DNA of 64,000 nt from a virus. Taxonomy: Duplodnaviria > Caudoviricetes. Of the stretch, positions 15,301 through 38,041 are shown piece by piece. The notes beneath the pieces are model-generated. The model saw only the letters and a list, made by a program, of their open reading frames with translations. It was not told where the DNA came from and did no database searches. Each line of letters starts with the position of its first letter. Positions within the stretch are counted from its first letter, which is position 1. Both the position numbers and the translations under genes were made by a program. The stretch covers positions 507 through 64,506 of IMG/VR virus record IMGVR_UViG_3300044825_000714, one strand, 5' to 3'.

Positions 15301-18300
15301 TTGGCGCAGATTCAAGTCTCCAAGCTGGCAACGGCCACCGAGAAAACTACCGAGACATTCTCTCCTATCCAGACTGAACTGGAGGCGCAACGCGAAGGCA
15401 AAGAAGGCGCGAAGCAGTACGACGGGTTCATGGATAACCTGTGGAACTCGTTCGTGGGCACGATGGCCTACATGTACAAGCTGTTCCGCCCCGGGCAGAC
15501 TGCGACCAAGATTCTGATGCCGACCGAGAAGTCTCGGCTTACGACCGCCAAGACGCAGCGTCAAGCAAAGCGGGAAGAAATCAGAGAAGAGATCGAGACT
15601 AAGAAGGTTGGCGAGGAAGAAGTCAAGGGCCTCACTGACAAAGAAAAAGCAGAGCTTGGCCTAGCGGAAAAGGAAGCGTTTGCTCCCGAGACTTTGTTTG
15701 ATAACCCCGAACAAATGCAAGAGGCCAAGATCAAGCCTCTACCCGGGGAGCTAAAGACCAAGGCTGGGATTACTAACCTCAAGCGCGAAATCCTGCGTGA
15801 ACCCGGCTATAAGGGTAACCTTCTGCTGGAGGCTGCGGCTGCGTTTGAAGTCCTGCTGGCAGCACCAGAAGGCGGCATTCAGCGGCTGGCTGGGCGTGAG
15901 GGCATCGGGGCTGAACTACCGTCTAGAGGCGCGGCGGCTGCTCCTACCGCTGGACCAAGAACCGACGAAGAAATTGCCGCCGAAGCCCTCAAGCAAGTTG
16001 AGATCAAAGAGCATGGGCTGAAGTCTCTGCGACAACTGCTGTTCTCCCGCCGTGGGTACGAGTGGTTCGTCAAGCAGTTCCAGAACGAGCGTCGTGTGGT
16101 CAAGCAAATCTCTGAGCGCGCTGAGCGCTTTGGGATGCTCCAGCGCGTGGGCGCAGGCATTAACGATGTTTGGGGCCAACTGACCCGCTCGACTGGCATG
16201 GCGGTTGACCTATACAACGTGCACGTGCGCGGGCTGTCGGAAGATGCTGACCGCGCTATCGAGGCGTACGCCAAGAAGAAAGGCATCCCGGTCAAGGAAG
16301 CGCTGTCTCGGTTGCACTTGATCTTTGAAGCGCGGCATGAGCCTGAGCGTCGGCAGGTGAAGTACCTGTTGCGCGTACCGCTGGACAACGATACCAAAAA
16401 CATCAACCTCGATGGACGAGCGTACACCCCTCAAGCGGCACGTGAAGAAATTCTGCGGAGGCTGGCTGATAACGATCTGAAGGGACGCACCCCCCAAGAC
16501 TATCGAGCCATGCTCGATCAAATTATTGCCGCCGGGTTGTTTGACAAAGCTGCGCCTGCCGCAGAACTTGACCCAAACAACTCCAAGTACAACGTCATTG
16601 CAGACCGCCCCGCATCGGAGATTGCTGCAATTAAAAACACGTTTGATCTTCCGGCAGATCGAGCTGAGATCGACGCGATTGACGCGGCGCTCAAGAAGCT
16701 GACCGAGAAGACCAAAGACCTGAACCGCGTGGCCAACTACTGGTCGCAGCCCGTGAATAACGTGGCGGAGTTCTACGGCTTCAAGAACTACGTGCCGTTC
16801 AAGGGTCGCAAGGGACTGGAGACTAGCGACCCCGAGATTGATTTGGGTAGCCAACGTCTGGGCGGCGAACTGCAAGATGCCCAGAACGCATTTGAAGGAC
16901 GCCTGACCGAATCCGAAAACCCGCTGCTTCAGATCAAAGCTGATGCAGCTACTGCCGCCATGCGCGCCGGACGCCGGGAACTGACGCTCGCCATCAAGAA
17001 CGCCGTCGAGCAAGGTATTCTCAAGGGTGATGTCGTCAAAACGATTGACTTCAAAGACCGCTACCTCAACACCGAACTGAAAAAAGAGTTTGGCGGTGAA
17101 AACAGCATCTTCCACTACAACAACGATGGCACCGTAGACATCATTAAGCTCGATGACAAGAACCAGCGTGAGGCAATTCGCCGCACGTACCGTGAGTCTT
17201 CGCCAATTCTTGATGTAGTCAACCAAATCACCAGTGGTATTGGTCAGAGCCACACCCGCTACAACCCGGCGTTTGCGCCGATGAACTATGTGCGTGACGC
17301 GCTCACAAACGCATTTACTCTGGGTGCCGAGATGGGTCCGGCTGCTGCTGGGCGCTTCCTGACCACGATTGCGCAGGACACGGTGTCCGGCGGATTCAAA
17401 AGCGCATTTCAGTTCTCCCGTCTGTATTCGGACGGCAAGTTCAACGAGCTTGAGCGCCTTGCCAGCAGGGACCCGTACTTTGCTGACATGCTGGAGTACG
17501 TCACTCTGGGTGGGCGCGTTTCGTACCTGCAAGGCGTAGCTGCCAAAGGCGCGCTAGATGGTCTGATGAAGGAAGTGGGCCGCAGCGGTGTGCTGCGCAC
17601 CAAAGATCAGATTGACAAGTTCTTCGACATCTACAACGACATCTTCGAACTGTCGGCCCGTACTTCCGCGTTCCGCACGATGAAGCAGCAGTTCCTCGCC
17701 AAAGGTGAGAGTCCGCAGGAGGCGGCGGTGCATGCTGCCGAATACGCCAAGAACTTCGCCAACTTCGAACAAGTCGGTCGCTGGGGCAAGGGCGCTGGTG
17801 CGCTGTTCATGTTCTTCCGTCCCGCCGCCACTGGCGCGGTGCGCGCTATCGATGCATTGCGTCCGGTCTTCGGGTTCAATGAAGATAAGTTCCGTGAAGA
17901 GGCCAAAGCTGAAGGTCGTACCGACGAACAGATTGATCGTGCAGTTGCCCAGATAAAGGTTGAACAGCGCAACGCCAGAGTCATGTCTGCGACGTTGGCT
18001 GGCTTCGGTGTCGCCATGTACATGCTGGCGGCAGCAATGTCTGGTGATGATGAAGAGAAGCGCAATAAAGTCGCTACGGATGACATGGCGCGCTGGACCC
18101 GTTTCGCACGGTTCCACATCCCCGGCACGGACATGATCATTCAGATTCCCTGGGGCTTCGGTCTGGGCGCGTTTGGTGCTGCCGGGGCGCAGATCGCTGC
18201 GGTTATGGGGGGCAACGCCACTATCAAGGACGCTCTGTCCAACATGACCACCATCGGTCTGGACTCGTTCCTGCCGCTGCCGTTCTCCCGCATCAGCCCG

Positions 18301-18999
18301 ATTGACAACTTCCCTGCGTTCATGATCGACTCGGTGACGCCCAGCATGGCGCGTCCGTTCCTTGAGTACGTGATGAACCTCGATGGTCTGGGCCGCGAGA
18401 TTTACAACAATCGGCAGTCGCGCTACGGCGACGCCTACACGGGCGGTGACAACATCCCCGAGATGTACAAGCTGGCAGCGCGTAAGCTGTTCGAACTGAC
18501 GGACGGGGCGGTGGACTGGAGCCCCAACACGATGTACTTCTTTGCCAGTAACTTCTTTGATGGCGGGGCCAAGATCGCAAGTACGGGGGTCAACCTTGCG
18601 CTCACGATGTCAGGCGAGAAGGACTTCGACCCCAAGAACGACACGCTGTTCCTGAGCAGCTTCATCGGCACCAAGTCCAACGTTGATGCCCGAGAGTTCA
18701 GCAAGGCAGAAGACTACATCAAGGGATTGGACAAGCGCATCAAATCGCTGGAGTCCAACCCAGACGCTCTGGCGCGGTTCGTGGAGAACAATCCTGAGCA
18801 GTACATGCTCGTGAAGTTCTACAACCAAGAAGTCAACGGCGCGCTCAAGAAGATTCGTGCCGCTGCTAACCAAGTCCGAGCCGACCCCGACATGTCCATC
18901 AAGGAGCGCAAGGCGCAGCTTCAGGAACTGATCCAGATGCAGAACACTGTCAAGCGCCGCCTCCTTGAAGGCTTTGAGACGCTAGGCTACGAACGCTAG
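12379..18999 (+). CDS. Giant internal virion / ejection protein (2206 aa) with zincin-like motif
   Basis: Last late gene; TVLHELTHAAT followed by EFVAYA; hydrophobic C-terminal region resembling polyvalent-protein LPD38 domains. Confidence 0.75.
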   Translation: MAIYTYKAPGGKTIRLEGPAGLTQADVNLYGDNMFKTEPVAAPVPAPAPKGESGFIPSIMRAGYQTSALLGDVLPAMAAKAVGAEEYAKRQMGEAAATMQRAQELYPAEVPSYKDIKGVGDALTYVKEAIGEMIPSIIPSVLTGGLAGVAARPAVAAATAAAKEYAEKQVVEAFAKGPMQQAVLEKIKKDALAEGMKAAQRTALKYQAAGALTGSAAQNVPEVFQNIYEETGKMELAPALVAGGFNSVLDAIMPIQLLRKVNTAGIPREQIIGAWYKRAGKGAVTGFLTEGGTEAVQEMSSAAAEKFVDQNKDFFTEKNFERFINSGLKGGFGGAAVTATADVLTGKAPEKVTPPSEKEEVETERELPPPPAGEKKVRLSKLERLREDLAATQARLNENLAKGRRGTMITRSEGKIERLKREIADEEAKAAAEGAPSVAEPIPGAGGAGFEILSPTDAGVSAPAPQGPELTGVAPAPATAGELAGGKAAAPATVTPPPAPPPPAPPPPKPPAQTDEERLNKLLDDDLFSRGSAAAPSRAAQINEIGKKFGLTRNAGETDEAFGTRIKNAIAFEKQREPAPGETVPLSALPTEVVAAQEVKPSKPYRPAKEQRELYEETRQEFNQYVEPDDQLPEYEALTDDERREYFQNYIQRNTQEEHDQAADALSNYIAAKRSESRSRGDVDLVRARQSYQANRDSFGRQTGLAYNFPAWGDLSPESQRAYAAINKTDSVQEQHLAFSTLKKQIQREKAEQSSREALEQAETDATRQMLAAAERARKSQPAGKGDILPDNILQKLLAGDITAVLDYIKNEGNGLALKRGYDLFRVRGPGGKPVLRRGVVNIRDSVAMGIFRSLASRLLDVSGLKVNVVFDENMVYGDVAKYDAATNTLYVGPNGLDEATVLHELTHAATVKIIHQYFTDKSKLAPHVVKAVEQMQNIASAAQARLGSKYLSAFENLYEFVAYAMTDMDFQYDLAQIQVSKLATATEKTTETFSPIQTELEAQREGKEGAKQYDGFMDNLWNSFVGTMAYMYKLFRPGQTATKILMPTEKSRLTTAKTQRQAKREEIREEIETKKVGEEEVKGLTDKEKAELGLAEKEAFAPETLFDNPEQMQEAKIKPLPGELKTKAGITNLKREILREPGYKGNLLLEAAAAFEVLLAAPEGGIQRLAGREGIGAELPSRGAAAAPTAGPRTDEEIAAEALKQVEIKEHGLKSLRQLLFSRRGYEWFVKQFQNERRVVKQISERAERFGMLQRVGAGINDVWGQLTRSTGMAVDLYNVHVRGLSEDADRAIEAYAKKKGIPVKEALSRLHLIFEARHEPERRQVKYLLRVPLDNDTKNINLDGRAYTPQAAREEILRRLADNDLKGRTPQDYRAMLDQIIAAGLFDKAAPAAELDPNNSKYNVIADRPASEIAAIKNTFDLPADRAEIDAIDAALKKLTEKTKDLNRVANYWSQPVNNVAEFYGFKNYVPFKGRKGLETSDPEIDLGSQRLGGELQDAQNAFEGRLTESENPLLQIKADAATAAMRAGRRELTLAIKNAVEQGILKGDVVKTIDFKDRYLNTELKKEFGGENSIFHYNNDGTVDIIKLDDKNQREAIRRTYRESSPILDVVNQITSGIGQSHTRYNPAFAPMNYVRDALTNAFTLGAEMGPAAAGRFLTTIAQDTVSGGFKSAFQFSRLYSDGKFNELERLASRDPYFADMLEYVTLGGRVSYLQGVAAKGALDGLMKEVGRSGVLRTKDQIDKFFDIYNDIFELSARTSAFRTMKQQFLAKGESPQEAAVHAAEYAKNFANFEQVGRWGKGAGALFMFFRPAATGAVRAIDALRPVFGFNEDKFREEAKAEGRTDEQIDRAVAQIKVEQRNARVMSATLAGFGVAMYMLAAAMSGDDEEKRNKVATDDMARWTRFARFHIPGTDMIIQIPWGFGLGAFGAAGAQIAAVMGGNATIKDALSNMTTIGLDSFLPLPFSRISPIDNFPAFMIDSVTPSMARPFLEYVMNLDGLGREIYNNRQSRYGDAYTGGDNIPEMYKLAARKLFELTDGAVDWSPNTMYFFASNFFDGGAKIASTGVNLALTMSGEKDFDPKNDTLFLSSFIGTKSNVDAREFSKAEDYIKGLDKRIKSLESNPDALARFVENNPEQYMLVKFYNQEVNGALKKIRAAANQVRADPDMSIKERKAQLQELIQMQNTVKRRLLEGFETLGYER
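13688..13861 (+). CDS. Nested +1-frame small helical protein (57 aa)
   Basis: AAGGAG-6 nt-GTG start; GC3-rich codons in the nested frame while the host frame becomes A/T-ending and low complexity. Confidence 0.65.
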   Translation: MLQNLSREQVEQALKFLAQPMPESVPPPLKDLNLLEWHLLQQLLENLLEEKQQHPLQ

Positions 19000-23297: not shown

Positions 23298-23711
23298 TCA
23301 GACTGTAGTTGCACTGGTTGACGGAGCCTTGCGCACGACGATGTCGTACTCACGCAGGCTATTCACACCGGGCGGCAGACCTTCTCCGCTACGCTCGGCC
23401 ATGAATTCTTTGAAGTTGCGCTGATGGATACGGCGCTCCAGCAAGTCAATCGAGCCTTCGGTCTCGACGAACTTTTTGAAGTTGTCCCAGTCAGTGCAGA
23501 AGTATCGGTCTTTCACTTGGCGGGTCACAGTGCCGTGATTGGTACGGAACCCGTTGGTGTTGGTTTGGTTGCAGATGTCGAGCAACGCACTCTCCAGCTT
23601 CTCGATGTCGGCTTTGAGCGCGTCGTCTTGCGCTTCGTATTCGGCCTTGAGCGTCTCACGCTTGCGGCGAATCGTCAAGTAGGTTTCCACTAGGGCTTCG
23701 GCGTCAGTCAT
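23298..23711 (-). CDS. Conserved replication-module protein
   Basis: Coiled coil plus RTNHGTV, DLLERRI and LPPGV motifs between helicase and SSB-like gene. Confidence 0.6.
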   Translation of the reverse strand: MTDAEALVETYLTIRRKRETLKAEYEAQDDALKADIEKLESALLDICNQTNTNGFRTNHGTVTRQVKDRYFCTDWDNFKKFVETEGSIDLLERRIHQRNFKEFMAERSGEGLPPGVNSLREYDIVVRKAPSTSATTV

Positions 23712-25278
23712 CACTGTTCTCCACTTCATCAACGAAAAGGTCCACTAATTTCGTGTGCATGTCCACCTTGTTCTGCAACATCTTGTACATGCGTTTCTCC
23801 ACCTCGGACCCTTGGAGGTGAACCACGGTCATCTTGTTCTGCTGTCCCACGCGGTCGATCCGTGCAATGCACTGCAAATACGTTTCGACTGACATCACAG
23901 GAGACCAGAACACGATAGTGTCAGCGGCGGTGAGCGTGACGCCATGCGACGCCGCCTGCGGTTGGATCAGTAGCACCCGAGGGTTGGCTACTGTCTGGAA
24001 GTTATTGAACACGCGCCCACGCTCCGATGCACTCACGTCACCTGAGATGATCTCGTTGGTTACGCCTTCTCCATCAAGATATTTCTTGACGACGTTGAGC
24101 GTGTGCTTGTACGGGATGAAGATGATGATCTTGTTGCGCGTCTCGTCCAGCACTTCGCTGAGAACTTTTAGACGTGGCGTGATATCAAACTCCACCACGT
24201 TGGAGTCGTCGGTGTAGACCGCGCCGCCGGACAGTTGCAGTAGGCGGGACAGCGCCGCTGCCGCGTTGACCGTACTGATGGTCTCGCCCGCTGCCTCAAT
24301 CTGCATCTCTTTGACCAACTCGCGGTAGTACTTCGTTGCCTGCGGTGTGAGCGGAACATCTCTCGTAACAGACACCAGATCAGGCAGGTCCAAACACTGC
24401 GCCTTCTCGTACCGGATCGCGGGTTGCAGCGCGTTGAACACGGTAGCCTGCGAGTCAGCCTTGGGCACCCACTTGAACTTGCTGACTTGGCGCATGACCT
24501 TGTCTTTCCAAGCGGTCTTGAACTTGGGCACGCCCTGCGGGTTGATCATCTTGGCCAGACCAAATGCATCTTCAGGAGACTGCGCGGCGGGAGTGCCCGT
24601 CATCATCCACAGATACGTGTCGGCCTTGACGATTCGTGAAAGAGTTTTCCAGCGTACGGTGGACGGGTTCTTGTAGGCGTTGGCCTCGTCCACGATGATC
24701 AGATCAAAGTCGGCTTTCTTGATCGCCTCTTCAACGACACCCACGCCGTCAAAGTTGATGATCACGAACTCGTACATGCCGTTGATGATCTTCTCGCGCT
24801 TGGCAGCGGAGCCATGCGCCACGCCGCAGGAGCGGTGCATCGCGGACTTGAAGAGGTCTCCCTGCCACGCGCTGTACATGATCGACAGCGGACAGATCAC
24901 TAAACAACGCTTCACCCTACCCTGACGCATTAGGTAGTCAGCGGCCCAGATGGCAGCGGAGGTCTTGCCCGTGCCTGCTTCGTTGAAGCAGAACGCGCGC
25001 TTGTGCAGAGTCAGAAACCGAGCGGTGTCACGCTGATGGTCAAAGGGCTTGTACATCCCCGGCCAGTTGTAGTCACGCTCGATGGGTGAGGGAATTTTGA
25101 TCGAGGCAGGCGCGACACGCGAGAGACGTTGCATCTCATCGAGGCCCCAATACACGGCGACCTCCGCGACTTCGCCCATGTCCCGCAGTACCTCACTCTT
25201 GTCGATGTAGCTCTCGATGGTGTAGGCAACGCTGCTGGGGCAGACGAATTTCAGAACTGAATTCTCAACTATCTCCAT
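23704..25278 (-). CDS. SNF2-like superfamily 2 helicase
   Basis: NEAGTGKT, IIVDEA, MTGTP, HGVTLTAA, QCIARIDRVGQ. Confidence 0.92.
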   Translation of the reverse strand: MEIVENSVLKFVCPSSVAYTIESYIDKSEVLRDMGEVAEVAVYWGLDEMQRLSRVAPASIKIPSPIERDYNWPGMYKPFDHQRDTARFLTLHKRAFCFNEAGTGKTSAAIWAADYLMRQGRVKRCLVICPLSIMYSAWQGDLFKSAMHRSCGVAHGSAAKREKIINGMYEFVIINFDGVGVVEEAIKKADFDLIIVDEANAYKNPSTVRWKTLSRIVKADTYLWMMTGTPAAQSPEDAFGLAKMINPQGVPKFKTAWKDKVMRQVSKFKWVPKADSQATVFNALQPAIRYEKAQCLDLPDLVSVTRDVPLTPQATKYYRELVKEMQIEAAGETISTVNAAAALSRLLQLSGGAVYTDDSNVVEFDITPRLKVLSEVLDETRNKIIIFIPYKHTLNVVKKYLDGEGVTNEIISGDVSASERGRVFNNFQTVANPRVLLIQPQAASHGVTLTAADTIVFWSPVMSVETYLQCIARIDRVGQQNKMTVVHLQGSEVEKRMYKMLQNKVDMHTKLVDLFVDEVENSDD

Positions 25279-25303
25279 ACTGTCCTTCTACTGTTTTGGG
25301 GTT

Positions 25304-25439
25304 GCCAGCCCTGACGTGGGAGTAATGTCGTTCGGGGGAGAAAGCGCCCACCGGCTGGCTGATGCGGTTTGAGGCTGAAGCTGACCTCTTTTGGGATCTC
25401 TAGTACCCGTGGCCCACTCACACCTAACAGCCACGCATC
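25304..25439 (-). ncRNA. Candidate structured leader RNA / sRNA upstream of helicase
   Basis: Stems 25304-10/25353-59, 25316-20/25347-51 and 25361-66/25434-39; directly downstream of a promoter. Confidence 0.55.
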
Positions 25440-25441
25440 CA

Positions 25442-25469
25442 ATTATGCGGATGCCGATTCAAATGTCAA
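25442..25469 (-). promoter_or_regulatory. Sigma70-type promoter
   Basis: TTGACA-16 bp-CATAAT. Confidence 0.65.
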
Positions 25470-25780
25470 GTTCTCTTTCGCTCTTTTTTGCTGGTCTCCG
25501 ACACCAGCGCGCCCGACGCAGCACGACGGAACGAACGATTGGCACTCGGTGATTGAATGAACACACCATGCTTGTTGGAGCCGCCCTTGGACAGCGCCTT
25601 GCGGTGCGCAATGTCTTTGCCTTCTCGCGCATCGGCCTTGCCGTTGCCGTTGGCATCGCGTCCCTTCTTGTCCATGGCACGGCGCGCTCGTTGGCGCTCC
25701 ATGCGGTCGGCGTGTTCGCCCCGCGCCTTCTGCTGGGCATATTCAAGTTTGTACGGTCGCTTCTTGTTTACGTAGGGCAT
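25466..25780 (-). CDS. Small HNH-like protein
   Basis: GKDIAHRKALSKGGSN...SANRS HNH-type core. Confidence 0.7.
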   Translation of the reverse strand: MPYVNKKRPYKLEYAQQKARGEHADRMERQRARRAMDKKGRDANGNGKADAREGKDIAHRKALSKGGSNKHGVFIQSPSANRSFRRAASGALVSETSKKERKRT

Positions 25781-25946
25781 CTCGTTGCTCCTTCATGTGC
25801 TTGAGCGCGTTGAGCGTCATGCGGGTTTCTGTCAGCGCGGTGAGGCAGTGCTCCATCGCAGTGTCGAGGTCGTTCTCGATAGCTGCCCAGTGCATATCTT
25901 TCATGGCGCGCTCAGCGCTCATCGCGGGTTGTGCGTAGTCGATCAT
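25743..25946 (-). CDS. Hypothetical protein
   Basis: ATGA-coupled to exonuclease; helical. Confidence 0.55.
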   Translation of the reverse strand: MIDYAQPAMSAERAMKDMHWAAIENDLDTAMEHCLTALTETRMTLNALKHMKEQRDALRKQEATVQT

Positions 25947-26605
25947 CTTTCTTTATAGAACTCACAGGTTTGGACAGGACACCAGCCGCACAGCGGAGTT
26001 GGGTTGGGCATCCAGTGATCATTTTCGTGGGACAGACGCAGACGTTCAAGGTCAAACCAGAAGTCCTGCCAAAGTTTTTCCTCGTCAGCCCTCGCGTACT
26101 CGCTGGTTACAAAGTGTTCATGTGCCACAAACAGCAGGCCCGCCTTGAAGTGCTTGACCTCGGGGAAGTGTTTGAATCCCATGAGCGCCATAAGTTGCAA
26201 CTGCTTGGGGTCGGGATAACGATTACTACCCGTCTTGTAATCAACAATAAAGCCTTGATCGCCGTTGACTACAACAAGGTCTGCAACCCCTCGTACCCAG
26301 TAGTTCGGGTCTCTGAAGCCGCACGGCACTTTGTCTGCGGTCAGCGCCATCTCGTGCTCAGGGTACTTCGTGCCCTCCATCTCGCGTAGGGGATCGAGTT
26401 GCTTCTGGTACCGCTGGTAGTTTTTCAGTAAAGGGGTCCCATCCCGGACGTAGTCCTCCAGCGCCTTGTGTACTTCCGTGCCGTACAGCATCTGTTCTGT
26501 TTGCTTTTTGGTGAAGTTCTTTAGCACCTTCACCTGCTGATACTGCCGGGGGCAGTTCTTGTAGTCCTTGAGACCCGAGTACGACCACTGAATCTTGACT
26601 GTCAT
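25943..26605 (-). CDS. PD-(D/E)xK Cas4/RecB-like exonuclease
   Basis: WSYS...CP, GTEVH, GVADL, IVDYKTG, QLQL, CGWCP...C. Confidence 0.88.
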   Translation of the reverse strand: MTVKIQWSYSGLKDYKNCPRQYQQVKVLKNFTKKQTEQMLYGTEVHKALEDYVRDGTPLLKNYQRYQKQLDPLREMEGTKYPEHEMALTADKVPCGFRDPNYWVRGVADLVVVNGDQGFIVDYKTGSNRYPDPKQLQLMALMGFKHFPEVKHFKAGLLFVAHEHFVTSEYARADEEKLWQDFWFDLERLRLSHENDHWMPNPTPLCGWCPVQTCEFYKER

Positions 26606-27233
26606 GGAGAGACTTCCGTTCTTTCTTTGATCCGGTAGAACATACCATATTCAGGCGCTTTTCATTGAAGCCTTTGTCCTGCGTCCAAAATGCTGCACCG
26701 CGCAAAAACAGGAACCAGTATGGCTCGTTCCCAGCCATGCGTTGTAGATCGTTCTGCTTATGTACGATTAAAGTCCCAACATTGGACCGCCCACCAAAGA
26801 TATTCAGCGCAGCCACCGAGTCGATGTTGATCCCGCCCGTGCAGGCGGTCATCGGGGTCATGTTCTTTTGCACCGGGCCGAGGAAGACAGGCATCTCAAG
26901 ATCGGCAGAGTACGCAGCGGCTTGTTCCAGATAGTCAGCCAGCGTCGTCGCGTTCAGGCCGTTGTTGTGGTAGACGGACATCCGGCGCTTGCACTCGATA
27001 GCGAACGTCGCCTCGTAGGTGCGTACAACAAAGTCCACCTTCTTACCGCTCTTGGTGCGCACTTGCTCGTCGAATGCCCAGCCTTGTGCGTTAAGCAACT
27101 CTCGAATGAACTGTGAAGCTTTGTCTTCGGTGTCGTACTGCGCCGCGTTTTTAAGCGCCAAGTCGCGCATCGCGTAGTGGTACCCGTTGTGATCAATCCG
27201 ATAGGCTTCAGGGTCAAAATCAAACGTCGCCAT
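26358..27233 (-). CDS. Restriction-like PD-(D/E)xK nuclease (possible free-standing homing nuclease)
   Basis: EQVRTKSGKKVDFVV...FAIECKR and Q...Y motif; 3' part overlaps exonuclease by about 250 nt. Confidence 0.6.
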   Translation of the reverse strand: MATFDFDPEAYRIDHNGYHYAMRDLALKNAAQYDTEDKASQFIRELLNAQGWAFDEQVRTKSGKKVDFVVRTYEATFAIECKRRMSVYHNNGLNATTLADYLEQAAAYSADLEMPVFLGPVQKNMTPMTACTGGINIDSVAALNIFGGRSNVGTLIVHKQNDLQRMAGNEPYWFLFLRGAAFWTQDKGFNEKRLNMVCSTGSKKERKSLHDSQDSVVVLGSQGLQELPPAVSAGEGAKELHQKANRTDAVRHGSTQGAGGLRPGWDPFTEKLPAVPEATRSPTRDGGHEVP

Positions 27234-29100
27234 ACGTCGCTCCTACTTTGGCTTCACACGCAACGGGAAGACCCGTGGCCCACGCTGGAGCCTTGGACAT
27301 GATGCCAGTTATAAATGCCTTGGCTTCATCAGCCTCGTCGGCAGGGGCAACGATCACAGCCGCGTCATGCACAGTCAGCGCCACGCGTAGCTTCTCGTTG
27401 ATCTCCACCATCTGCGTACCAACGATGATCCGGGCCAGCGCCTGCACCACGTTCTCTACGACAGTCCCACCCCAGATACTAACGGGGCCTTTGCGAGAGT
27501 CATAGACGATTTGGTTTTTGCCGTCTTTGTCTTCCCGACGCAGTCCTGGGTAGCGGATGCGTAGACCGTTGGGCAGGATGATTCCCTCGTTGTCGTAATG
27601 AACACACCCATGTTGACCCAGCGGCAGCGGGGCTTTGATCTTGGAGTTCATCATCGTGTCGAGCATGGAGTCACACTCGCCCCACAGATCGACCACCTTG
27701 TGGTTCTTGTCCCGGTACACGCCTACGATCCGCTTGGATTCCTCCAAGTCGAGCTTCACGCTCACCGGCTGAGATGTAGCCAGCGTCCCCTGTAACTTCG
27801 CCGCGCCAGTGCCGTAGCCCAGTCCAAGTACGCATGTCTTGCCCACGAACCGCTCGGTCTCGTCGGCCTTGGTGATGGTGCGCCCGTAGACGGACGATGC
27901 AAAGATGGAGTACACATCCTCTTTGTTGGCGAACTGTTTCACCACATCTTCCTGCCCCGCCCACCATGCCAGCACCCGCGCCTCGATCTGCGATGAGTCT
28001 GAGTTGATGACCACGTAGCCCTCGGGGGGCACGATGGCGCGCTTGAGCGCCTTTTTCTTTTTGTCACGGCTCGGCAGGTTCTGGAAGTTCACCTTGTCCG
28101 TGCCCGACCAGCGCCCGGTGTGTGCTCCATAGTACTTCAGGGGCACCGGAATCGCTCCCTTGTGCCGCCGTCCAATGTCCATGAACCGCTCGATGCGCTT
28201 CTCTTCCAGAGTGGACTTGGTTCCAAGGCGCACCGCGCAGAGTTGTTGGATGAACGGGTCTTCGTGTTCACACAGTGCGAGGAAGCCCTCGTCCTTCTTG
28301 GCCAGCGCCCATGTCTCTTTGCCCGTGGTGGGAGAGACTTTCTTGGGAGGCTCGATGTTCAGGTCCAGTAATACTTGAGCAAATTGCTTGTTGCTCGACA
28401 GCTTGGCGCGAACATCTTCTTCGGTAGCGCACTCCAGCTTCTGCATGAGCGAGGACAGTAGCTCAGACTTCTCTTGACGTAGCGCGATCAGTCGCTCCTC
28501 CAGCGCACCCTCGTCCACGTACAACTGCGGATGCGTAAACATACGCAGCGTCATGTCGATCAGCTTGAGTTCTTCGCCGGGGAAGTCCGCGATCATCCGC
28601 GTGAGCAGCTTGTAGGTCAGCGTCACGTCGTTCTTGCAGTACTCGCCGTACCGAGCGAGTTCATCAGGGGTGAAGTCCAGACGGCGCTTGTTGATGGCGT
28701 TAAGCACTTCGTCGCCCTTGGCTCCGATCTCGTAGCGTTCAGCCAGCTTCGCCAGTGAACCGCCTACCTCCACGCCGTGCAGCGCACGGGCCATGCACAG
28801 CGTATCAAGGTACGCCATGGGAGTAATCCCAAAATGCCAGTGCAGAATCGCCCCGTCGAACAGGGTGTTGTGCGCCAGCATGAGCGCGTTCTTCCAGTCG
28901 TATTTCAGAAGGAACTTGCGTATCTCTTCATGGGACCCTGAGAACCAAACTGGCTCACCGGGTGTAACTCCATCGTCCACCTGCACGGACACACCGATGA
29001 CCTCAAAGTTGGGGTCACGGATGTACTCCTCCGTCGTCTGGGTCTTGAAGCCCAGCCCCTTGTCGGTGTAGTAAGTCTCCATGTCTACTGTAATAATCAC
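27220..29100 (-). CDS. polA: Family A DNA polymerase with 3'-5' exonuclease
   Basis: VDMET, AHNTLFD, YCKNDV exonuclease motifs; HTGRWSG, NFQNLP, DSSQIEAR, GKTCVLGLGYG, TVHDA. Confidence 0.93.
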   Translation of the reverse strand: MIITVDMETYYTDKGLGFKTQTTEEYIRDPNFEVIGVSVQVDDGVTPGEPVWFSGSHEEIRKFLLKYDWKNALMLAHNTLFDGAILHWHFGITPMAYLDTLCMARALHGVEVGGSLAKLAERYEIGAKGDEVLNAINKRRLDFTPDELARYGEYCKNDVTLTYKLLTRMIADFPGEELKLIDMTLRMFTHPQLYVDEGALEERLIALRQEKSELLSSLMQKLECATEEDVRAKLSSNKQFAQVLLDLNIEPPKKVSPTTGKETWALAKKDEGFLALCEHEDPFIQQLCAVRLGTKSTLEEKRIERFMDIGRRHKGAIPVPLKYYGAHTGRWSGTDKVNFQNLPSRDKKKKALKRAIVPPEGYVVINSDSSQIEARVLAWWAGQEDVVKQFANKEDVYSIFASSVYGRTITKADETERFVGKTCVLGLGYGTGAAKLQGTLATSQPVSVKLDLEESKRIVGVYRDKNHKVVDLWGECDSMLDTMMNSKIKAPLPLGQHGCVHYDNEGIILPNGLRIRYPGLRREDKDGKNQIVYDSRKGPVSIWGGTVVENVVQALARIIVGTQMVEINEKLRVALTVHDAAVIVAPADEADEAKAFITGIMSKAPAWATGLPVACEAKVGATYGDV

Positions 29101-29122
29101 GCTTCATCTTCCCCGGAAAGGT

Positions 29123-29209
29123 GGGGGTACTCGCTGCGTCTGGGCGGGTTCTGATCCCCGCGATTCAACTGTTAGCTTTCGCCAACTTCTCAGCATCCGC
29201 TTTCCCCCC
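29123..29209 (-). ncRNA. Candidate structured RNA upstream of polA
   Basis: GGGGG/CCCCC closing stem, GAA/AGUA loop, hairpins GUUGGC-GAAA-GCUAAC and GCGGG-GAUCAGAA-CCCGC. Confidence 0.6.
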
Positions 29210-29214
29210 GAAAC

Positions 29215-29631
29215 TCAAACGCTCTTGGCGATCTCGCGCTCCAGATACCACTGAGCTTTCTTCAGGTTCTCAAGGCGGTTGCCTTTGTGGTCTGCGCGGG
29301 TCACGTACTTTACGACGTTGCCGAGGTGGTAGTTCAAGCTCTTGGCCTCGATGAAGTCGATGGTCTCGATGCCTCCGGTCTTATAGTGCGGCGGGTGGTT
29401 GACCATGTCGGGTGCGACGGGCGCAGGGGCAGGGGTCTCCGCGCTTTGCAGTCGAATCTTCGGCGTCCCATCGGGTCGCAGAAACTTGCTCACTGCTTGC
29501 TTCATCTTCGAACGGATCACGTACACGTACTGAGCTTTCACGCCGAACTTCGCTGCCACGTCTGCGGGCTTTGCGTCGGGGTGTGCGGCCAGATACGCAC
29601 GGATCTTTGCTGCATTGGATTTTTTAGCCAC
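29215..29631 (-). CDS. DUF3310 (T7 gp1.7-like nucleotide kinase domain) protein with N-terminal HTH
   Basis: DMVNHPPHY..GGIETID, GNVVKYVTRA..KG, LKKAQWYL. Confidence 0.85.
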   Translation of the reverse strand: MAKKSNAAKIRAYLAAHPDAKPADVAAKFGVKAQYVYVIRSKMKQAVSKFLRPDGTPKIRLQSAETPAPAPVAPDMVNHPPHYKTGGIETIDFIEAKSLNYHLGNVVKYVTRADHKGNRLENLKKAQWYLEREIAKSV

Positions 29632-29650
29632 GATGATTCTCCTTACTAAA

Positions 29651-29797
29651 TTAAAACGGGGCTGGTTGAATTGGGATTGGTTTGGACTGTTTCAAGTACT
29701 CACGGTGCATCCTTTCTAGAATCTTGGCGTCCACGCGAGTGAACGGCCAGAGTTCGTTTGGTTTGGGTAACGGCTTCTTGGGTTGTTTGGCTTTCAA
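29651..29797 (-). CDS. Hypothetical protein (48 aa)
   Basis: TTGA overlap with upstream stop; fills gap in operon. Confidence 0.45.
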   Translation of the reverse strand: MKAKQPKKPLPKPNELWPFTRVDAKILERMHREYLKQSKPIPIQPAPF

Positions 29798-30054
29798 AGT
29801 TTCTGTCCTGCCCGAGAAAAAATGTTGAACTCCCTGACGTTTATGCGGTTGGGTATCTTGGATGACTTCTCTGACATGCCGGGGAAGTGACTGATGTCCC
29901 TGCCCTTCTCGCGTTCGCGCTCGATGACCAGCGTCTGGCTCTGGGATAACTTTGCTCCCGCAGTAAACAGCGAGTCTCTTGCGAATACGGACGGACGCGG
30001 GTTGTGCTTCCAATGAAACGGGCTGTCCTCGTGGCACTTGCACTTGTATTTCAT
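29794..30054 (-). CDS. Hypothetical protein
   Basis: AGGAGA RBS; ATGA coupling. Confidence 0.55.
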   Translation of the reverse strand: MKYKCKCHEDSPFHWKHNPRPSVFARDSLFTAGAKLSQSQTLVIEREREKGRDISHFPGMSEKSSKIPNRINVREFNIFSRAGQKL

Positions 30055-30299
30055 TTTTTTCTCCTACCTTCAGGTTTTGGACAGTTCGGCGGCGGGATGA
30101 CGACACACCACACAGCGATGACGCGCTTGCCGTCCTTGACCCAGCGGTCGATGTACGCATCGGGCATGGACTTCAATATCCTGTAGATGTGCGGCAGGTT
30201 GCCGTAGTCAAACGCATCATCGATCTGTCTGGCGGTCAGGCCGTCGGGGTTGTTTCTTAAAAGCTCTCTTGTTTTGTTTATGCGGACATTGCTACCCAT
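30051..30299 (-). CDS. Winged-HTH-like small protein
   Basis: LLRNNPDGLTARQI, DAYIDRW, VWCVVIPPPNCPKP. Confidence 0.6.
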   Translation of the reverse strand: MGSNVRINKTRELLRNNPDGLTARQIDDAFDYGNLPHIYRILKSMPDAYIDRWVKDGKRVIAVWCVVIPPPNCPKPEGRRKK

Positions 30300-30454
30300 G
30301 CCACACCCACCCAACACGAAACAACGATGAACCAGAATTTGATGTTCGCCCAGATGTCAGGCCAATCGTCCGGGGCAATCAGCATGGTCAGGGGAATGGC
30401 TAACAGCATGATGACGGTGATGGCTAACAGAAACAGGATGATGGCGAGGGTCAT
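30278..30454 (-). CDS. Small membrane protein
   Basis: Two hydrophobic segments; ATGA coupling. Confidence 0.5.
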   Translation of the reverse strand: MTLAIILFLLAITVIMLLAIPLTMLIAPDDWPDIWANIKFWFIVVSCWVGVAWVAMSA

Positions 30455-30666
30455 TCTCCGTGCTCCAGACATTGATGCAAGCATTGCAGCTTTGCGAGTT
30501 CAAACATCCACACAGCATGCTCGTGCGTCACATGGGACGACAAAGAGCACAGCTTCTCATCCTCGTAGAACAACACCACACATGGCTGATCGTCTTCAAT
30601 ACGCTCCAGCGCATGGGCCAGCATGGCCTTGGCACCCCAGTTGTTTCTGATCTGCTCAACTTTCAT
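30451..30666 (-). CDS. Hypothetical protein
   Basis: ATGA-coupled on both sides. Confidence 0.55.
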   Translation of the reverse strand: MKVEQIRNNWGAKAMLAHALERIEDDQPCVVLFYEDEKLCSLSSHVTHEHAVWMFELAKLQCLHQCLEHGE

Positions 30667-30887
30667 TCCTGCCCCCTTGCGCGTATCTGTTTGGCACACC
30701 AGTTCGCTGCGTTCCATCCCGGCTCCTCACACACCTTCGCACACGCCTCGCGCTCGGCTGCGGCGACAAGGGCGGCGAAGCGTTCAAGTTCTTCCTGCGT
30801 GACCGTCCAAAAACCGTTATGCCATGCGTCCACCTTGTCGGTATCGCAAGCCTCCCGCGCCATGCGGATGATGTCGTCGCGGGTCAT
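30663..30887 (-). CDS. Hypothetical phage protein (EREACA family)
   Basis: MTRDDIIRMAREA...LERFAALVAAAEREACAKVCE...IRARGQE. Confidence 0.7.
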   Translation of the reverse strand: MTRDDIIRMAREACDTDKVDAWHNGFWTVTQEELERFAALVAAAEREACAKVCEEPGWNAANWCAKQIRARGQE

Positions 30888-31063
30888 GCGTTCTCCTTTT
30901 GTTCGCTGGCGTTCATCCACAGCACTCCTGCGGCCATCAGGCCTAGCAGCGCACAAACAAAGCGCCCGTCATCAGTCCAGTTTCCGGGATTGAGATCCCA
31001 CGCAATGAACCCGCACAGCAGGTACGCGAGCAGCGGGCCAGCCAGCACGATCAGATACTTCAT
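30884..31063 (-). CDS. Small two-TM membrane protein (59 aa)
   Basis: MKYLIVLAGPLLAYLLCGFIAW...; ATGA coupling at both ends; below ORF-track cut-off. Confidence 0.55.
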   Translation of the reverse strand: MKYLIVLAGPLLAYLLCGFIAWDLNPGNWTDDGRFVCALLGLMAAGVLWMNASEQKENA

Positions 31064-31269
31064 GCGTTCTTCTCCCGCAGCTTGGCTGCTTTTGGCTCAT
31101 GCGTACAAGCGTCTTCGTACTCCAGCACGTCTTGCATCTTGTAGCGGATCAATCCACCAATCTTCAGGTATCGACACCCTTGTTTCAGTGACCTGTCGCG
31201 CTCCAGTGTGGCTTCGCTGATCTTCCATCGGAAGGCCAACTCCTCTTGTGTCATCAGTTGCTCGCTCAT
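31060..31269 (-). CDS. MerR/excisionase-type HTH protein
   Basis: LMTQEELAFRWKISEATLERDR...YLKIGGLIRY. Confidence 0.8.
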   Translation of the reverse strand: MSEQLMTQEELAFRWKISEATLERDRSLKQGCRYLKIGGLIRYKMQDVLEYEDACTHEPKAAKLREKNA

Positions 31270-31388
31270 TGCGGATTCTCCTCATCGTCAAACGCCATAT
31301 CCGGGTGCGGTATGTCGTCATGCACGATCACACCATTGACGGCCTCGATGAATTTGCCACAGACCACGCAGTAGTAACCTTCATCCAT
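31266..31388 (-). CDS. Small CxxC/His protein (40 aa)
   Basis: MDEGYYCVVCGKFI...HDDIPH; GGAGAAG RBS. Confidence 0.45.
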   Translation of the reverse strand: MDEGYYCVVCGKFIEAVNGVIVHDDIPHPDMAFDDEENPQ

Positions 31389-31545
31389 TGTTCTTCTCCT
31401 CTTTGATCGGCTCACTCACAATGCGTCCACAAATCTTGCAGTCTTTGTGGAAGTAGCCGTTGTAAATCCAGCCGCTACGCGCCCCAAGGTGGCCCGTCTT
31501 TTCACAAAGCCACATACAAAATCTGTATAGCCACGGTTGATTCAT
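31381..31545 (-). CDS. Small zinc-binding-like protein
   Basis: LC...GH and CKICG. Confidence 0.5.
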   Translation of the reverse strand: MNQPWLYRFCMWLCEKTGHLGARSGWIYNGYFHKDCKICGRIVSEPIKEEKNNG

Positions 31546-31997
31546 GCGTTCTTCTCCCGCAGCCTGTCTTCGATGGCACGGGCAAACTGCAAATGCCAAT
31601 CCTCGCATCCATCAATGTCGTCTGACAGCTTGAAAATTTCCTCCTGCGTCAGCCCCACCCACTCGCGGCGCGGCGGGATGAATTCGCCAACCTCAATGCC
31701 TACGCCATAAACGGCACCCGGCTCCTGTTCCGGCTGCTTTGGCTTAAACCGTGGAATGCCGCCCGGAGTTCTCCATGTCGGCTCCTGCTTCGGCAGATGC
31801 CGCGCATCGCAGGCAACACAGCCAGCGCCAGCACAGTGGCTACACGTTCCATCCTGCTCCGCCAGCCGCTCGCGCAGGGCGGCGATGGCAACCCGCGACC
31901 GGGTGTTTGCCCCTCGGCGTGTGACCGAGTCATACGGGCCTTGGCACCACATCTCCAGCGTCTCCAGCGCCTGCTGCATCAATTCGCGGTCAGTCAT
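31542..31997 (-). CDS. Hypothetical modular protein
   Basis: Starts MTDRELMQQALE, ends FARAIEDRLREKNA. Confidence 0.65.
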   Translation of the reverse strand: MTDRELMQQALETLEMWCQGPYDSVTRRGANTRSRVAIAALRERLAEQDGTCSHCAGAGCVACDARHLPKQEPTWRTPGGIPRFKPKQPEQEPGAVYGVGIEVGEFIPPRREWVGLTQEEIFKLSDDIDGCEDWHLQFARAIEDRLREKNA

Positions 31998-32233
31998 GGA
32001 TACATCCTTTCGTGGCAACGGGCGCAATAGCCGTCTGCGCCGCGCTCGCAAACCGCGCTCTTTAAACATGATTGGGGCTGCGCCAGCCGATCGCGCAGGG
32101 CGGTGATAGCCTGTTCGACATCGTATTGCTCGTTTGCAAAGTCGAATCCAATTTCCTGACGGCACTCAGCCATCCCGTACTTTGCAGACTCCAGCGCCTC
32201 CAGCGCCTGCTGCATTAACTCTCTATCCGTCAT
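31994..32233 (-). CDS. Hypothetical modular protein
   Basis: Starts MTDRELMQQALE, same N-terminal module as neighbour. Confidence 0.6.
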   Translation of the reverse strand: MTDRELMQQALEALESAKYGMAECRQEIGFDFANEQYDVEQAITALRDRLAQPQSCLKSAVCERGADGYCARCHERMYP

Positions 32234-32553
32234 GTCCCCCTCCCCGATCTTTGGGCGCAGGGCCACGTTGACTTGAGAACGTGCAGCACCAGCAGGTCGG
32301 CAGACAAATGCCGTACCGCCGGGTTGCTTGTTAGGTAGTTGCGCACCATGTCCCGCACCTGCCCCGCTGTCACGCCCTCCGGCGCGCACTGAGAGACGTT
32401 GTGGTGTGCGTCGGCCACGCCCATGACGTAGCCGATGGCAGCATTCTGTTCACCCATCGTCCCACCCATGCGCGACAGCAGCGTGTTGCCATCCCAGAAC
32501 TCAGCGTGTGCAGAGACACTAAGCAGAGACAAACACAGGACAAGCGCTTTCAT
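32230..32553 (-). CDS. Rap1a/Tai-like exported immunity-family protein
   Basis: Signal peptide ending AHA; GNTL, GYVMGVAD, C.P..VT.GQ, YL..NP..RH, C-terminal WPC. Confidence 0.75.
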   Translation of the reverse strand: MKALVLCLSLLSVSAHAEFWDGNTLLSRMGGTMGEQNAAIGYVMGVADAHHNVSQCAPEGVTAGQVRDMVRNYLTSNPAVRHLSADLLVLHVLKSTWPCAQRSGRGT

Positions 32554-32996
32554 GTCTTCCTATCCTCCTGTTCCCATTCAGCCTTCTCGGCCTCATACCT
32601 ACGCATGAACTCGTCCCACGTGATGGGCGGTGGGGCTTCCATCTTCAAGCCCGGGTACTCGTACCAGCCAGCCAGAACAAGCTGAACGTATCTAGTCTCC
32701 AGCCCAAACGCTTCAGCTACGGTGTCCCACACGCCTTCCGCGCTTGCGGCAGTGCCTGCGCTGAAGATCGCGTCGATAGGGGAGTCATGTTCCGGCAGCT
32801 CGTTGAACATTCGCACCCATATGCCGCGCATGTCGTCACGCACATCTAGCCAGTCGCGGGGCCGCGCTGCGTCAAAGTACCGGTGCAAGGCGTCACCAAT
32901 GTCGAGGTTTTCGTCCTCTTCCCAGTAATACCCAACGTAGTCCAGCAACTGCTCGGGGGGTATCTCCCAATAATTTTCAACCATGTCCGGAATCAC
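32550..32996 (-). CDS. Acidic hypothetical protein
   Basis: Asp/Glu- and Trp/Tyr-rich; coupled to neighbours. Confidence 0.55.
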   Translation of the reverse strand: MIPDMVENYWEIPPEQLLDYVGYYWEEDENLDIGDALHRYFDAARPRDWLDVRDDMRGIWVRMFNELPEHDSPIDAIFSAGTAASAEGVWDTVAEAFGLETRYVQLVLAGWYEYPGLKMEAPPPITWDEFMRRYEAEKAEWEQEDRKT

Positions 32997-33208
32997 TTCA
33001 CCCTCCGCATCTCACGCGGCTCCCATTGCGTGTCGGGGATATATTCCTTCTCAGGGGGAGGTGGGGTCATAGTTGCGCTGGGCGGGGTCCAGCCAAACCT
33101 ACGCCATGTGGCTTGCACATCAGCGCCACGCTGATACCTGAAGTCCGGGTGGGTGACATGGGTCGTCGGCTCCACGCGGGTCTGTTCACGCTTTCCACTG
33201 TTCTTCAT
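32993..33208 (-). CDS. Hypothetical protein
   Basis: FRY...ADVQATWRRFGWTPPS motif. Confidence 0.6.
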   Translation of the reverse strand: MKNSGKREQTRVEPTTHVTHPDFRYQRGADVQATWRRFGWTPPSATMTPPPPEKEYIPDTQWEPREMRRVK

Positions 33209-33503
33209 TTGACAATCTCCATTGAAGATACTGATTCAAATACTCAAGGTTGTGTTCATCAATCAACAGCGCCACGCCCCCCGCATGCTTGATTTGCGCC
33301 AAGTTCGATATCTGCAACTTGGTGGGCTTGCCGCCGTTGGCCTTGCACTCGATGCCAAAGAAAGTGCCGCGATAACAAGCGAGGATGTCAGGCACCCCCG
33401 CGTTACCGAACCCCGAGGCGACGGGCATTGTGTAATATGCTCCCGCCGTCTTCAAGATGTCAATCACTTTCTTCTTGACCTTGCGCTCTGGGGTGTCAGC
33501 CAT
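33186..33503 (-). CDS. VRR-NUC nuclease
   Basis: TPE..VK, GVPDI, FFGIECKA, PTKLQ, AGGVA. Confidence 0.88.
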   Translation of the reverse strand: MADTPERKVKKKVIDILKTAGAYYTMPVASGFGNAGVPDILACYRGTFFGIECKANGGKPTKLQISNLAQIKHAGGVALLIDEHNLEYLNQYLQWRLSNEEQWKA

Positions 33504-33861
33504 CGCCTGCTCCTTTGAGATACATGTCTTCTAGACATTTATTGCTCAACACCAAGATGTACATCTTGTCGTTTATACGCCAGCCGACCTCTGATTGTTT
33601 CGGATCAGGCGGTACGTAAACAGCGACCACTTGTACTCCTTCTTGATACGGCACGTAAGGGAACGCGTTGACCATCGTCACACCAGCTTTGACTTCTTTC
33701 GGTACTGTTTTGTCGTTGAAGTAACGATGTACGTTCTCCGACACGCACACTGTGTATGAGTCAGGTTCAACCCACACGGGGGTGCGATAGTACGCATCAA
33801 GCGTCGGGTGACGAATAGGTACAAACGATGAGCGGTTGATCATGTCGATGACAACACTCAT
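33496..33861 (-). CDS. Hypothetical protein
   Basis: Coupled ORF in early operon. Confidence 0.55.
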   Translation of the reverse strand: MSVVIDMINRSSFVPIRHPTLDAYYRTPVWVEPDSYTVCVSENVHRYFNDKTVPKEVKAGVTMVNAFPYVPYQEGVQVVAVYVPPDPKQSEVGWRINDKMYILVLSNKCLEDMYLKGAGDG

Positions 33862-34811: not shown

Positions 34812-34945
34812 TTACTTTCTCCGGTTAGTTTCTCTTCCAACGCGCGATCACGCTCGCAATCGCGCTGCTCTTCGGCTTGCTGCCACAAAATCTCTTCGGC
34901 TTCATCCCATGTGAAGCCCTCATCCATCAGGTCTTGCCTCCTCAT
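34808..34945 (-). CDS. Small acidic protein (45 aa)
   Basis: ATGA coupling at both ends. Confidence 0.45.
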   Translation of the reverse strand: MRRQDLMDEGFTWDEAEEILWQQAEEQRDCERDRALEEKLTGESK

Positions 34946-35310
34946 TTCAATTCCTCCGGCACGTCTACCTCGTCACCGAGTTGGCTTGCCACATAGCAGC
35001 GCATCGCTGCGATTAGGACGGTCGGCCCATCCATGCAGAACGTCCGGTTCAAGCCCCCGAGACTTGGCTTTCGTGCGCCGTACTGGTGGGCCTTGTCAGA
35101 AGCGGGTAGCCATTGCCACTCGATCTTTTCACGCTCAATGATCGGGCCGCCTTGTGCCCAGTCGTCAGAGAAGTGGAACATAGGCTCAATGAAGTCGTGA
35201 TACAGCAGCACAAACTGCTCTGCGTCTTCAAAACAGATCTCGTCGTTCATACCCTCACACTTCGCCACCGCCCAATCAAGGGCGGCCCCGGTCAGTTCAC
35301 TTGTCTTCAT
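34942..35310 (-). CDS. NinX-like (DUF2591) protein
   Basis: ELTGAALDWAVA, DWAQGGPIIERE, IAAMRCYVAS.LG. Confidence 0.8.
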   Translation of the reverse strand: MKTSELTGAALDWAVAKCEGMNDEICFEDAEQFVLLYHDFIEPMFHFSDDWAQGGPIIEREKIEWQWLPASDKAHQYGARKPSLGGLNRTFCMDGPTVLIAAMRCYVASQLGDEVDVPEELK

Positions 35311-36557: not shown

Positions 36558-36648
36558 CACTTCCTCCAGATAAAAACGTCCAGCAGTAGGACGATCAGAG
36601 CGGCAGCAAAGGCTGCCCGCTCCACCTTTTCGTACAGGGTTAGTTTTC

Positions 36649-36915: not shown

Positions 36916-36923
36916 CCCTCACC

Positions 36924-37994: not shown

Positions 37995-38041
37995 GGCTTT
38001 CTCTCGGTTGGTTGATCAACGGTTCAGGGTGGGGTGAGGCT

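Follow-up and report, generated by a model that had tools for sequence, protein, structure and literature searches.

The question raised by this locus is what a short non-coding region is doing between an HNH-like open reading frame (ORF) and an SNF2-family helicase gene in a tailed phage, where a preliminary description had placed a structured small RNA (sRNA) exposing a loop complementary to the ribosome sites of the early genes, by which an early regulon would be shut off. The window, meaning the whole stretch of 64,000 nucleotides (nt) that was analysed (positions 507 to 64,506 of IMG/VR record IMGVR_UViG_3300044825_000714), represents approximately the whole of a complete 64.5-kb virus record, and its sequence is detected chiefly in freshwater and other aquatic metagenome runs. 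Covariation shows the putative leader in this region to be one member of a new family of freshwater-phage RNAs, folded compactly around a pseudoknot, and it has been shown statistically that a pyrimidine tract in the apical loop of one of its hairpins (P4) tracks the early start regions of each phage.

The leader belongs to none of the families held in Rfam 15, a check that had been suggested for it. No covariance model of this release matches anywhere in the window at gathering thresholds, and at E values up to 10 the region 25200-25520 yields only a spurious plus-strand match inside the helicase coding region. A full-text literature search, covering main texts without supplements, found no description of the motif. 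Folding of the single sequence reveals no excess stability (z = +1.27 and +1.66, with 182 and 189 of 200 shuffles folding equally well or better) and was not counted as evidence. The proposal of a structured RNA is thus upheld by strong covariation among relatives, but not by the thermodynamics of the sequence alone.

The covariation was first seen at 23 IMG/VR loci encoding relatives of the helicase, whose upstream regions exhibit obvious compensatory changes; the structure was drawn by hand, and a covariance model was built on 8 sequences. This model recognizes the motif in 14 of the 23 loci and finds a single significant copy in the window (25297-25437, minus strand, 84.1 bits, E about 1e-22). 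From viral contigs, two scans with degenerate patterns returned 58 and 61 stretches, of which 51 and 58 were scored, the rest being already in the set, and 43 of the 51 and 47 of the 58 match the model at E<=0.01. The model is matched by all 76 distinct phage-contig sequences, in which standard pairs occupy 96.1% of 1643 pair cells, compared with 75.7% in shuffles and 32-46% when the partners are slid; both sides change at 20 of the 23 pairs, and compensatory cells number 387, against 117.5 in shuffles. The pseudoknot is 99.8% paired even though it was left out of the alignment model, and one of its pairs occurs as U-A in 38 of these sequences and as C-G in 37, while another is G-U in all 76. 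Since conserved G-U pairs are strand-specific, the fold belongs to the gene-sense strand. RNAalifold, run on an unfitted MAFFT alignment, independently recovers the long-range helix and the helices P3 and P4. The elements of the fold are the following, in window coordinates:

25297-25437, minus strand, conserved structured RNA motif (whole covariance-model match)
25409-25434, minus strand, P1 hairpin, 25434-25429 pairing with 25414-25409 around a near-invariant 14-nt loop (25428-25415); all 5 modelled pairs change on both sides, 91.0% paired
25416-25424, minus strand, 5' strand of the pseudoknot in the P1 loop, 25424-25419 with a possible extension at 25417-25416; covariation, with two pairs added by RNAalifold
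25361-25368, minus strand, 3' strand of the pseudoknot, 25366-25361 with the extension 25368-25367; covariation and RNAalifold
25371-25408, minus strand, variable P2 region with one or two G/C-closed hairpins, recognized by eye; out of register across sequences and outside the model
25304-25359, minus strand, P3-P4 arm; covariation and RNAalifold
25359-25353 with 25310-25304, minus strand, P3, 7 base pairs followed by a 1-nt bulge; 7 of 7 pairs change on both sides, 95.8% paired
25351-25347 with 25320-25316, minus strand, P4, 5 base pairs; 5 of 5 pairs change on both sides, 97.0% paired
25315-25311, minus strand, 5-nt internal loop of the P3-P4 arm
25321-25346, minus strand, P4 apical loop, which opens with the pyrimidine tract
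25346-25334, minus strand, pyrimidine-rich, anti-Shine-Dalgarno-like tract, the first 13 nt of the P4 apical loop

The pseudoknot is of the H-type, with the six P1-loop bases 25424-25419 pairing with 25366-25361, and 9 of the 14 positions of the P1 loop are invariant in 12 sequences. The scaffold as a whole is far more conserved than the P4 loop. By eye, the P4 tract was considered for a kissing contact with the 5' portion of the P1 loop; the idea was dropped, as the variable loop position does not co-vary with the tract. On the 3' side of the motif, 72 of the 75 members scored present a further stable hairpin (P5, folding free energy <= -8 kcal/mol), whose commonest loop has five bases and is GNRA-like in look; the window and relative L002 do not have it. 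Only 3 of these 72 hairpins are followed by a U-rich tail (>=5 U in a 9-nt tail), so that P5 is not a usual terminator, and a role for it as attenuator or terminator was rejected. A separate arrangement is seen by eye in L013 (600-900), whose helicase is 61% identical and which the covariance model misses: apparently no more than the 3' half of the motif is kept, without the P1/pseudoknot domain, and its pyrimidine tract looks paired with a Shine-Dalgarno-like purine tract, followed by a conserved linker and a hairpin.

The tract is displayed by the 3' hairpin, as had been described, and occupies the apical loop of P4. A 9-mer complementary to it occurs 6 times in the window, against 0.69 expected, a number reached in 0 of 100 shuffles. 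Five of the copies lie on the minus strand (38246, 39851, 40951, 43587 and 44227), each 1-4 nt 5' of a start codon, and the sixth is found on the plus strand at 25337-25345, so that the minus-strand leader RNA carries its exact complement. No exact copy is present on the plus-strand (late) gene blocks of the window. The 9-10 nt matches at five early ribosome sites and the 8-nt matches at 37996, 40583 and 34815, all of which lie in ribosome-site context, were found as previously listed. Altogether, 8 early sites of the window have 8-10 perfect pairs to the loop, and loop duplexes of -12 to -18 kcal/mol are predicted at ten start regions of the early region. The candidate targets, with sizes in amino acids (aa), are:

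38245-38254, minus strand, 10-nt perfect complement, early ribosome site of a 66-aa ORF, -17.9 kcal/mol
39851-39859, minus strand, 9 nt, early ribosome site of a 78-aa ORF, -15.9 kcal/mol
40951-40959, minus strand, 9 nt, early ribosome site of a 116-aa ORF, -16.0 kcal/mol
43587-43595, minus strand, 9 nt, ribosome site of a 35-aa ORF of doubtful coding status
44227-44235, minus strand, 9 nt, early ribosome site of a 63-aa ORF
37996-38003, minus strand, 8 nt, ribosome site of a 356-aa AAA-ATPase-like gene
40583-40590, minus strand, 8 nt, ribosome-site context of a 78-aa ORF
34815-34822, minus strand, 8 nt, ribosome site of a 317-aa gene

One of these candidates, the 356-aa AAA-ATPase-like gene (weak AAA matches), adjoins a 449-aa DUF2201 metallopeptidase/VWA gene (35307-37994 on the minus strand), and the two look like a MoxR-VWA-type pair in the early region.

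The relation between loop and start regions was then followed in the records of 15 relatives, in which genes were called by a simple length-and-Shine-Dalgarno heuristic and duplex energies were calculated for the opening 14 nt of every P4 loop against the 22 nt that precede a start codon. Genes on the same strand upstream of the motif were taken as early and those on the other strand as late, and G008 was excluded because its 7-nt loop is not unique in its genome. This early/late split, with shuffle controls, replaced a first duplex matrix of whole loops against all genes, whose signal was weak and possibly confounded by GC content; an initial count of k-mers at all in-frame starts proved too noisy and was discarded. 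In 11 of 15 genomes, the window's included in the set, the loop pairs better with its own same-strand upstream start regions than with those of other genes (Mann-Whitney p<0.05; p=0.027 for the window). When an 11 x 11 matrix of loops by genomes is double-centred, the diagonal is negative in 11 of 11 cases, with a mean of -0.80 kcal/mol (permutation p<5e-5), and in two clades taken separately the true assignment is either 1st or 2nd among the 120 permutations (exact p 0.008-0.017). The observed diagonal is reached by none of 301 composition-preserving shuffles of the loops, whose mean is -0.05 (sd 0.11), nor by reversed loops, at +0.03, and the late start regions exhibit no own-specific effect (+0.16, p=0.90). 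A purine-rich ribosome-site hexamer illustrates this relation: where the loop has its complement (eight genomes) it is present in 39 of 504 start regions, and in the remaining eight genomes in 10 of 553. This hexamer is a clade-specific ribosome-site word carried by orthologous early genes, and it differs from the 9-mer of the window. The covariation between loop and ribosome sites in related phages, which had been proposed as a check, is thus borne out.

According to these data, the mechanism best supported is that the loop pairs with the early start regions of its own phage and represses them, a reading still to be held tentatively and with somewhat more doubt than confidence. The RNA would be transcribed in the sense of the replication operon, in the window probably from a near-consensus promoter of its own as the 5' leader of the helicase mRNA, and the scaffold would hold out the P4 apical loop, whose pyrimidine tract would mimic the anti-Shine-Dalgarno end of 16S rRNA. 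In early mRNAs of the same phage, the tract would base-pair with the Shine-Dalgarno sequence and the spacer behind it, either in trans or at long range within a polycistronic transcript, and the duplex might block binding of the 30S subunit or be marked for cleavage, with the result that the synthesis of early proteins would be shut down once the replication operon is transcribed. Of the shut-off originally proposed, the preferential complementarity to the phage's own early start regions stands in 11 of 11 genomes, whereas repression itself is only inferred.

Several observations weigh against repression by pairing. The own-specific effect, an average of about 0.8 kcal/mol across some 30 start regions, is small, and it is in part generic, because early start regions also pair better with the loops of most other phages. 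Compared within its clade, the window has an own-specific "early minus rest" term of nil (+0.05). Four of the 15 genomes show no enrichment, all four having <=9 upstream genes on the contig, and at the level of single nucleotides the match of the flanking bases is mixed by eye, being good in G002, G006 and G014 and poor in G012. The genes and start codons come from a crude caller, and the genomes are related, so few independent events are represented. Moreover, a plain antisense role leaves the invariant unpaired nucleotides, the pseudoknot and the P5 hairpin unaccounted for. Such an elaborate scaffold implies a further partner or activity. An extended version can be formulated in which the folded phage RNA imitates the anti-Shine-Dalgarno tail of 16S rRNA and is matched to the extended ribosome sites of early genes of the same phage, working as an RNA-only early-to-middle translational switch, with the scaffold adding a second input (a ligand, a ribosomal component or a phage protein), which would make it a trans-acting, riboswitch-like regulator; this version is possible, and its realization is doubtful.

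The promoter-like sequence reported before a non-coding leader of about 160 nt was located again, with 11 of 12 consensus positions:

25442-25469, minus strand, sigma-70-type promoter, -35 at 25469-25464, 16-nt spacer, -10 at 25447-25442

Transcription is predicted to start a few nt from the first helix (P1), giving an untranslated helicase mRNA leader of ~157 nt. This promoter is the best among 7 promoter-like matches in 25300-45250, a number that is not above chance (8.5 expected). A near-consensus promoter lies directly 5' of the motif in the window, L029 and L083, where the -10 element ends 3-13 nt before it, so that the transcript should begin near the motif in these three. None was found just 5' of the motif in the six scanned representatives of other branches (L010, L053, L036, L087, L116 and L113), in which the motif is, as read from the sequence, part of an operon transcript, and in some other-branch relatives no more than ~14 nt separate the HNH stop from the conserved loop. 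The promoter is thus a feature of a clade and not of the family. Among the sequencing runs listed for the region none is an RNA run, and four runs that might have been RNA consist of fragmentary contigs and are probably DNA, so that they do not bear on expression. In the window the RNA has no terminator and the motif runs directly into the helicase ribosome site, so that it is an mRNA leader rather than a discrete sRNA. These facts also count against the preferred mechanism, and the discrete phage sRNA of the preliminary description is not borne out. In L010, L011 and L023 a -35-like hexamer is placed 17 nt 5' of the start of the conserved loop, which would put the -10 element inside the motif, and the scanner made no call there; compensatory changes in the pseudoknot between L010 and L011 argue for transcription of its 5' strand. 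Elsewhere in the window, two strong intrinsic-terminator-like hairpins followed by U tracts (41796-41816 and 42634-42663, minus strand, 9 and 13 pairs) lie inside the early block, suggesting several early transcription units 5' of the candidate target genes.

With respect to its setting, the motif occupies an intergenic region of 187 nt (25279-25465, minus strand) between the stop of the HNH-like ORF and the start of the helicase ORF, in a long minus-strand block of early and replication genes. The gene order on this strand is family-A DNA polymerase (27220-29100), PD-(D/E)XK nuclease, HNH-like ORF, intergenic region, SNF2-family helicase and a DUF927 primase-helicase-like gene. The features flanking the RNA are:

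25466-25780, minus strand, HNH-like ORF of 104 aa directly upstream of the RNA motif; HNH-like motif seen by eye, no Pfam match
25276-25288, minus strand, ribosome site (25288-25283) and start codon (25278-25276) of the SNF2 helicase gene
23704-25278, minus strand, SNF2-family helicase ORF of 524 aa, directly downstream of the leader

Two ORFs of 57 and 48 aa over the leader were rejected as genes, since the indels of relatives are not multiples of three and the changes track base pairing. Just 5' of the helicase start codon, a 5-nt word is seen by eye to occur twice (25295-25279), and in L010, L011, L012 and L023 an element of ~11 nt is repeated two to three times between the terminal hairpin of the motif and the helicase start (~100-190 nt past the motif start, also by eye); an operator is one possibility for these repeats, and a contribution to the initiation region another. 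A 2206-aa ORF (12379-18999, plus strand) lies within the structural block of the window.

Across 81 unique instances of the motif, an HNH homologue is located just upstream in 69 and a helicase <=900 nt downstream in 63, both being present in 62; 9 instances have neither neighbour and 2 a different order. The motif is always in the sense orientation relative to its neighbours. The exceptional settings include one between DNA polymerase and PD-(D/E)XK nuclease genes, one after a RusA gene, and one ~670 nt upstream of a small-terminase gene. In L017-L020, whose helicases are 52-53% identical, the HNH stop abuts the helicase start with no motif between them, and the RNA has therefore been gained or lost within this phage group. 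Among cultured phages, blastn with the region gave no match, and tblastn with the helicase detected only distant relatives (<=41% identity). A pattern scan of contigs from named or binned organisms returned 20 stretches, including 3 strong and 2 weak matches to the motif (E 1.7e-4 and 6.3e-4 for the weak ones), with no instance in any cultured genome of that scan; the three strong matches are on 3-6 kb contigs of metagenome-assembled genomes and may be mis-binned phage. The record of L029 (G003, 70.7 kb) holds two copies with identical scores at 3099-3237 and 66976-67114, ~63.9 kb apart, which were taken as terminal redundancy of the assembly, and the record was trimmed for the analyses.

The position of the motif in a 5' untranslated region or intercistronic space, in sense with the genes and with a helicase following within 900 nt in most instances, would also be expected of a cis-acting sensor or regulator of the downstream gene, either a riboswitch responding to a small ligand or a protein-binding operator for autoregulation by the helicase or HNH protein, the tract then being part of the fold or of the expression platform. 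Folds that bind ligands or proteins typically have many invariant unpaired nucleotides, pseudoknots and conserved hairpins, as this one does, the scaffold is much better conserved than the loop, and the family has the covariation-backed, aptamer-like fold that characterizes riboswitches. However, the usual expression platform of a classical riboswitch is not visible: the hairpin following the motif is rarely a terminator, and the loop does not co-vary with the start region of the downstream gene (49 distinct pairs; diagonal -0.22, p=0.21). Since own pairs are no better than cross pairs, and are weak (mean own duplex -5.6 kcal/mol), the idea that the loop sequesters the helicase ribosome site finds no support, and cis sequestration of the downstream ribosome site was rejected. 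The exceptional settings mentioned above also count against a cis-acting regulator, which leaves the early-gene-specific complementarity unexplained; overall, it is a possibility with rather modest prospects. The same complementarity goes unexplained if the RNA is an element of processing or stability, that is, a self-cleaving ribozyme, an RNase site separating cistrons, or a 5'-terminal fold guarding the helicase mRNA from 5'-end-dependent decay. The intercistronic location right after the HNH stop (14-211 nt, median 57) and the transcripts predicted to begin close to the motif in the window, L029 and L083 would suit this role, as would the compact pseudoknotted fold with invariant junction nucleotides, which we take to be in the style of small ribozymes, but no Rfam ribozyme family matches it even at E up to 10, and such a role is improbable.

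The remaining explanations concern the complementarity itself. The tract might be a generic anti-Shine-Dalgarno mimic aimed at the host, serving as a sponge for the ribosome sites of host mRNAs or as an S1-binding translational enhancer, with the phage matches merely following the 3' tail of the host 16S rRNA. Every loop does contain an anti-Shine-Dalgarno-like pyrimidine tract, early start regions surpass late ones with the loops of most phages, and some loops are presumably equal to the terminal 16S tail, judging from the 16S 3' ends assumed here. Nevertheless, the own-specific complementarity is seen for early and not for late genes, a split that a shared host template does not predict, which makes this explanation unlikely. 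Alternatively, the tract could be a structural or spacer element whose complementarity has no function and results from purine-rich ribosome sites and shared ancestry. It is true that any pyrimidine tract pairs with a Shine-Dalgarno-plus-A-rich-spacer sequence, that the effect is small and drawn from related genomes, and that the 9-mer match in a single window is post hoc. Against this, neither the 301 shuffles nor the reversed loops give an own-specific signal, the true assignment comes 1st or 2nd of 120 within each clade, and the signal is nil for late genes, so that a functionless match has little to recommend it. The P4 loop, held by a covariation-supported helix, offers by predicted pairing the accessible seed against target initiation regions that is characteristic of an sRNA, while two other classical sRNA features, an own terminator and a family-wide promoter, are missing. 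The RNA is filed here as a putative base-pairing translational regulator built on a new RNA fold.

The temporal shut-off of early genes is a central problem of phage biology, and to our knowledge the well-studied solutions, such as T4 RegB and RegA, are proteins. The RNA family is widespread and lies outside Rfam 15, with covariation as strong as in an accepted RNA family. If the pairing is functional, a whole early regulon would be controlled by a programmable regulator made of RNA alone, with an unusually elaborate scaffold, which would also offer a natural template for decoys directed against ribosome sites. Should the loop hypothesis fail, the fold is still a new candidate for a riboswitch, a ribozyme or an RNA that binds protein.

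Among known systems, the closest in function are the staphylococcal Rsa RNAs of the RsaE-RoxS type, which occlude the ribosome sites of several mRNA targets by means of a C-rich unpaired loop motif. The phage RNA resembles them in that a hairpin loop exposes an unpaired pyrimidine-rich motif, that several mRNAs have a Shine-Dalgarno region complementary to it, and that the candidate regulon has multiple targets. However, the Rsa RNAs are encoded in the chromosome as separate sRNAs, each with a terminator of its own and a simple scaffold, whereas the phage RNA is part of an operon or leader, its conserved pseudoknotted fold spans about 130 nt, and no terminator follows it in the window. Pistol-type ribozymes have been reported in phage-like contexts, and the resemblance to them is in the general grammar of the fold only: the loop of a hairpin pairs over 6 bp with a strand further downstream to give a pseudoknot, and a helix interrupted by an asymmetric internal loop comes next. 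The order of the elements is different, and Rfam models give no match at E up to 10. The operator of T4 gene 32 is a leader pseudoknot through which gp32 autoregulates its synthesis. This operator and the SAM-II and preQ1-II riboswitches share with the phage RNA a pseudoknotted fold in a 5' leader or intercistronic position, a replication-related operon and conserved unpaired nucleotides. The phage RNA differs from them in that it has no Rfam match and no visible expression platform, and that the downstream ribosome site lies outside the fold.

A further close functional parallel to the preferred reading is found among the regulators of early mRNAs in T4. In PMC3014915, gp32 is named among the RNA-binding proteins of this phage, and the strong sites of RegB, acting with S1, are described as a Shine-Dalgarno tetranucleotide with an A-rich extension, present in early and not in middle or late transcripts. 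RegB and RegA are likewise phage devices acting on the initiation regions of early mRNAs, and the pattern of RegB sites mirrors the early-specific extended ribosome sites described here. In T4 the effectors are proteins, a nuclease and a repressor, whereas the candidate effector in the phages carrying this RNA family is a base-pairing RNA loop.

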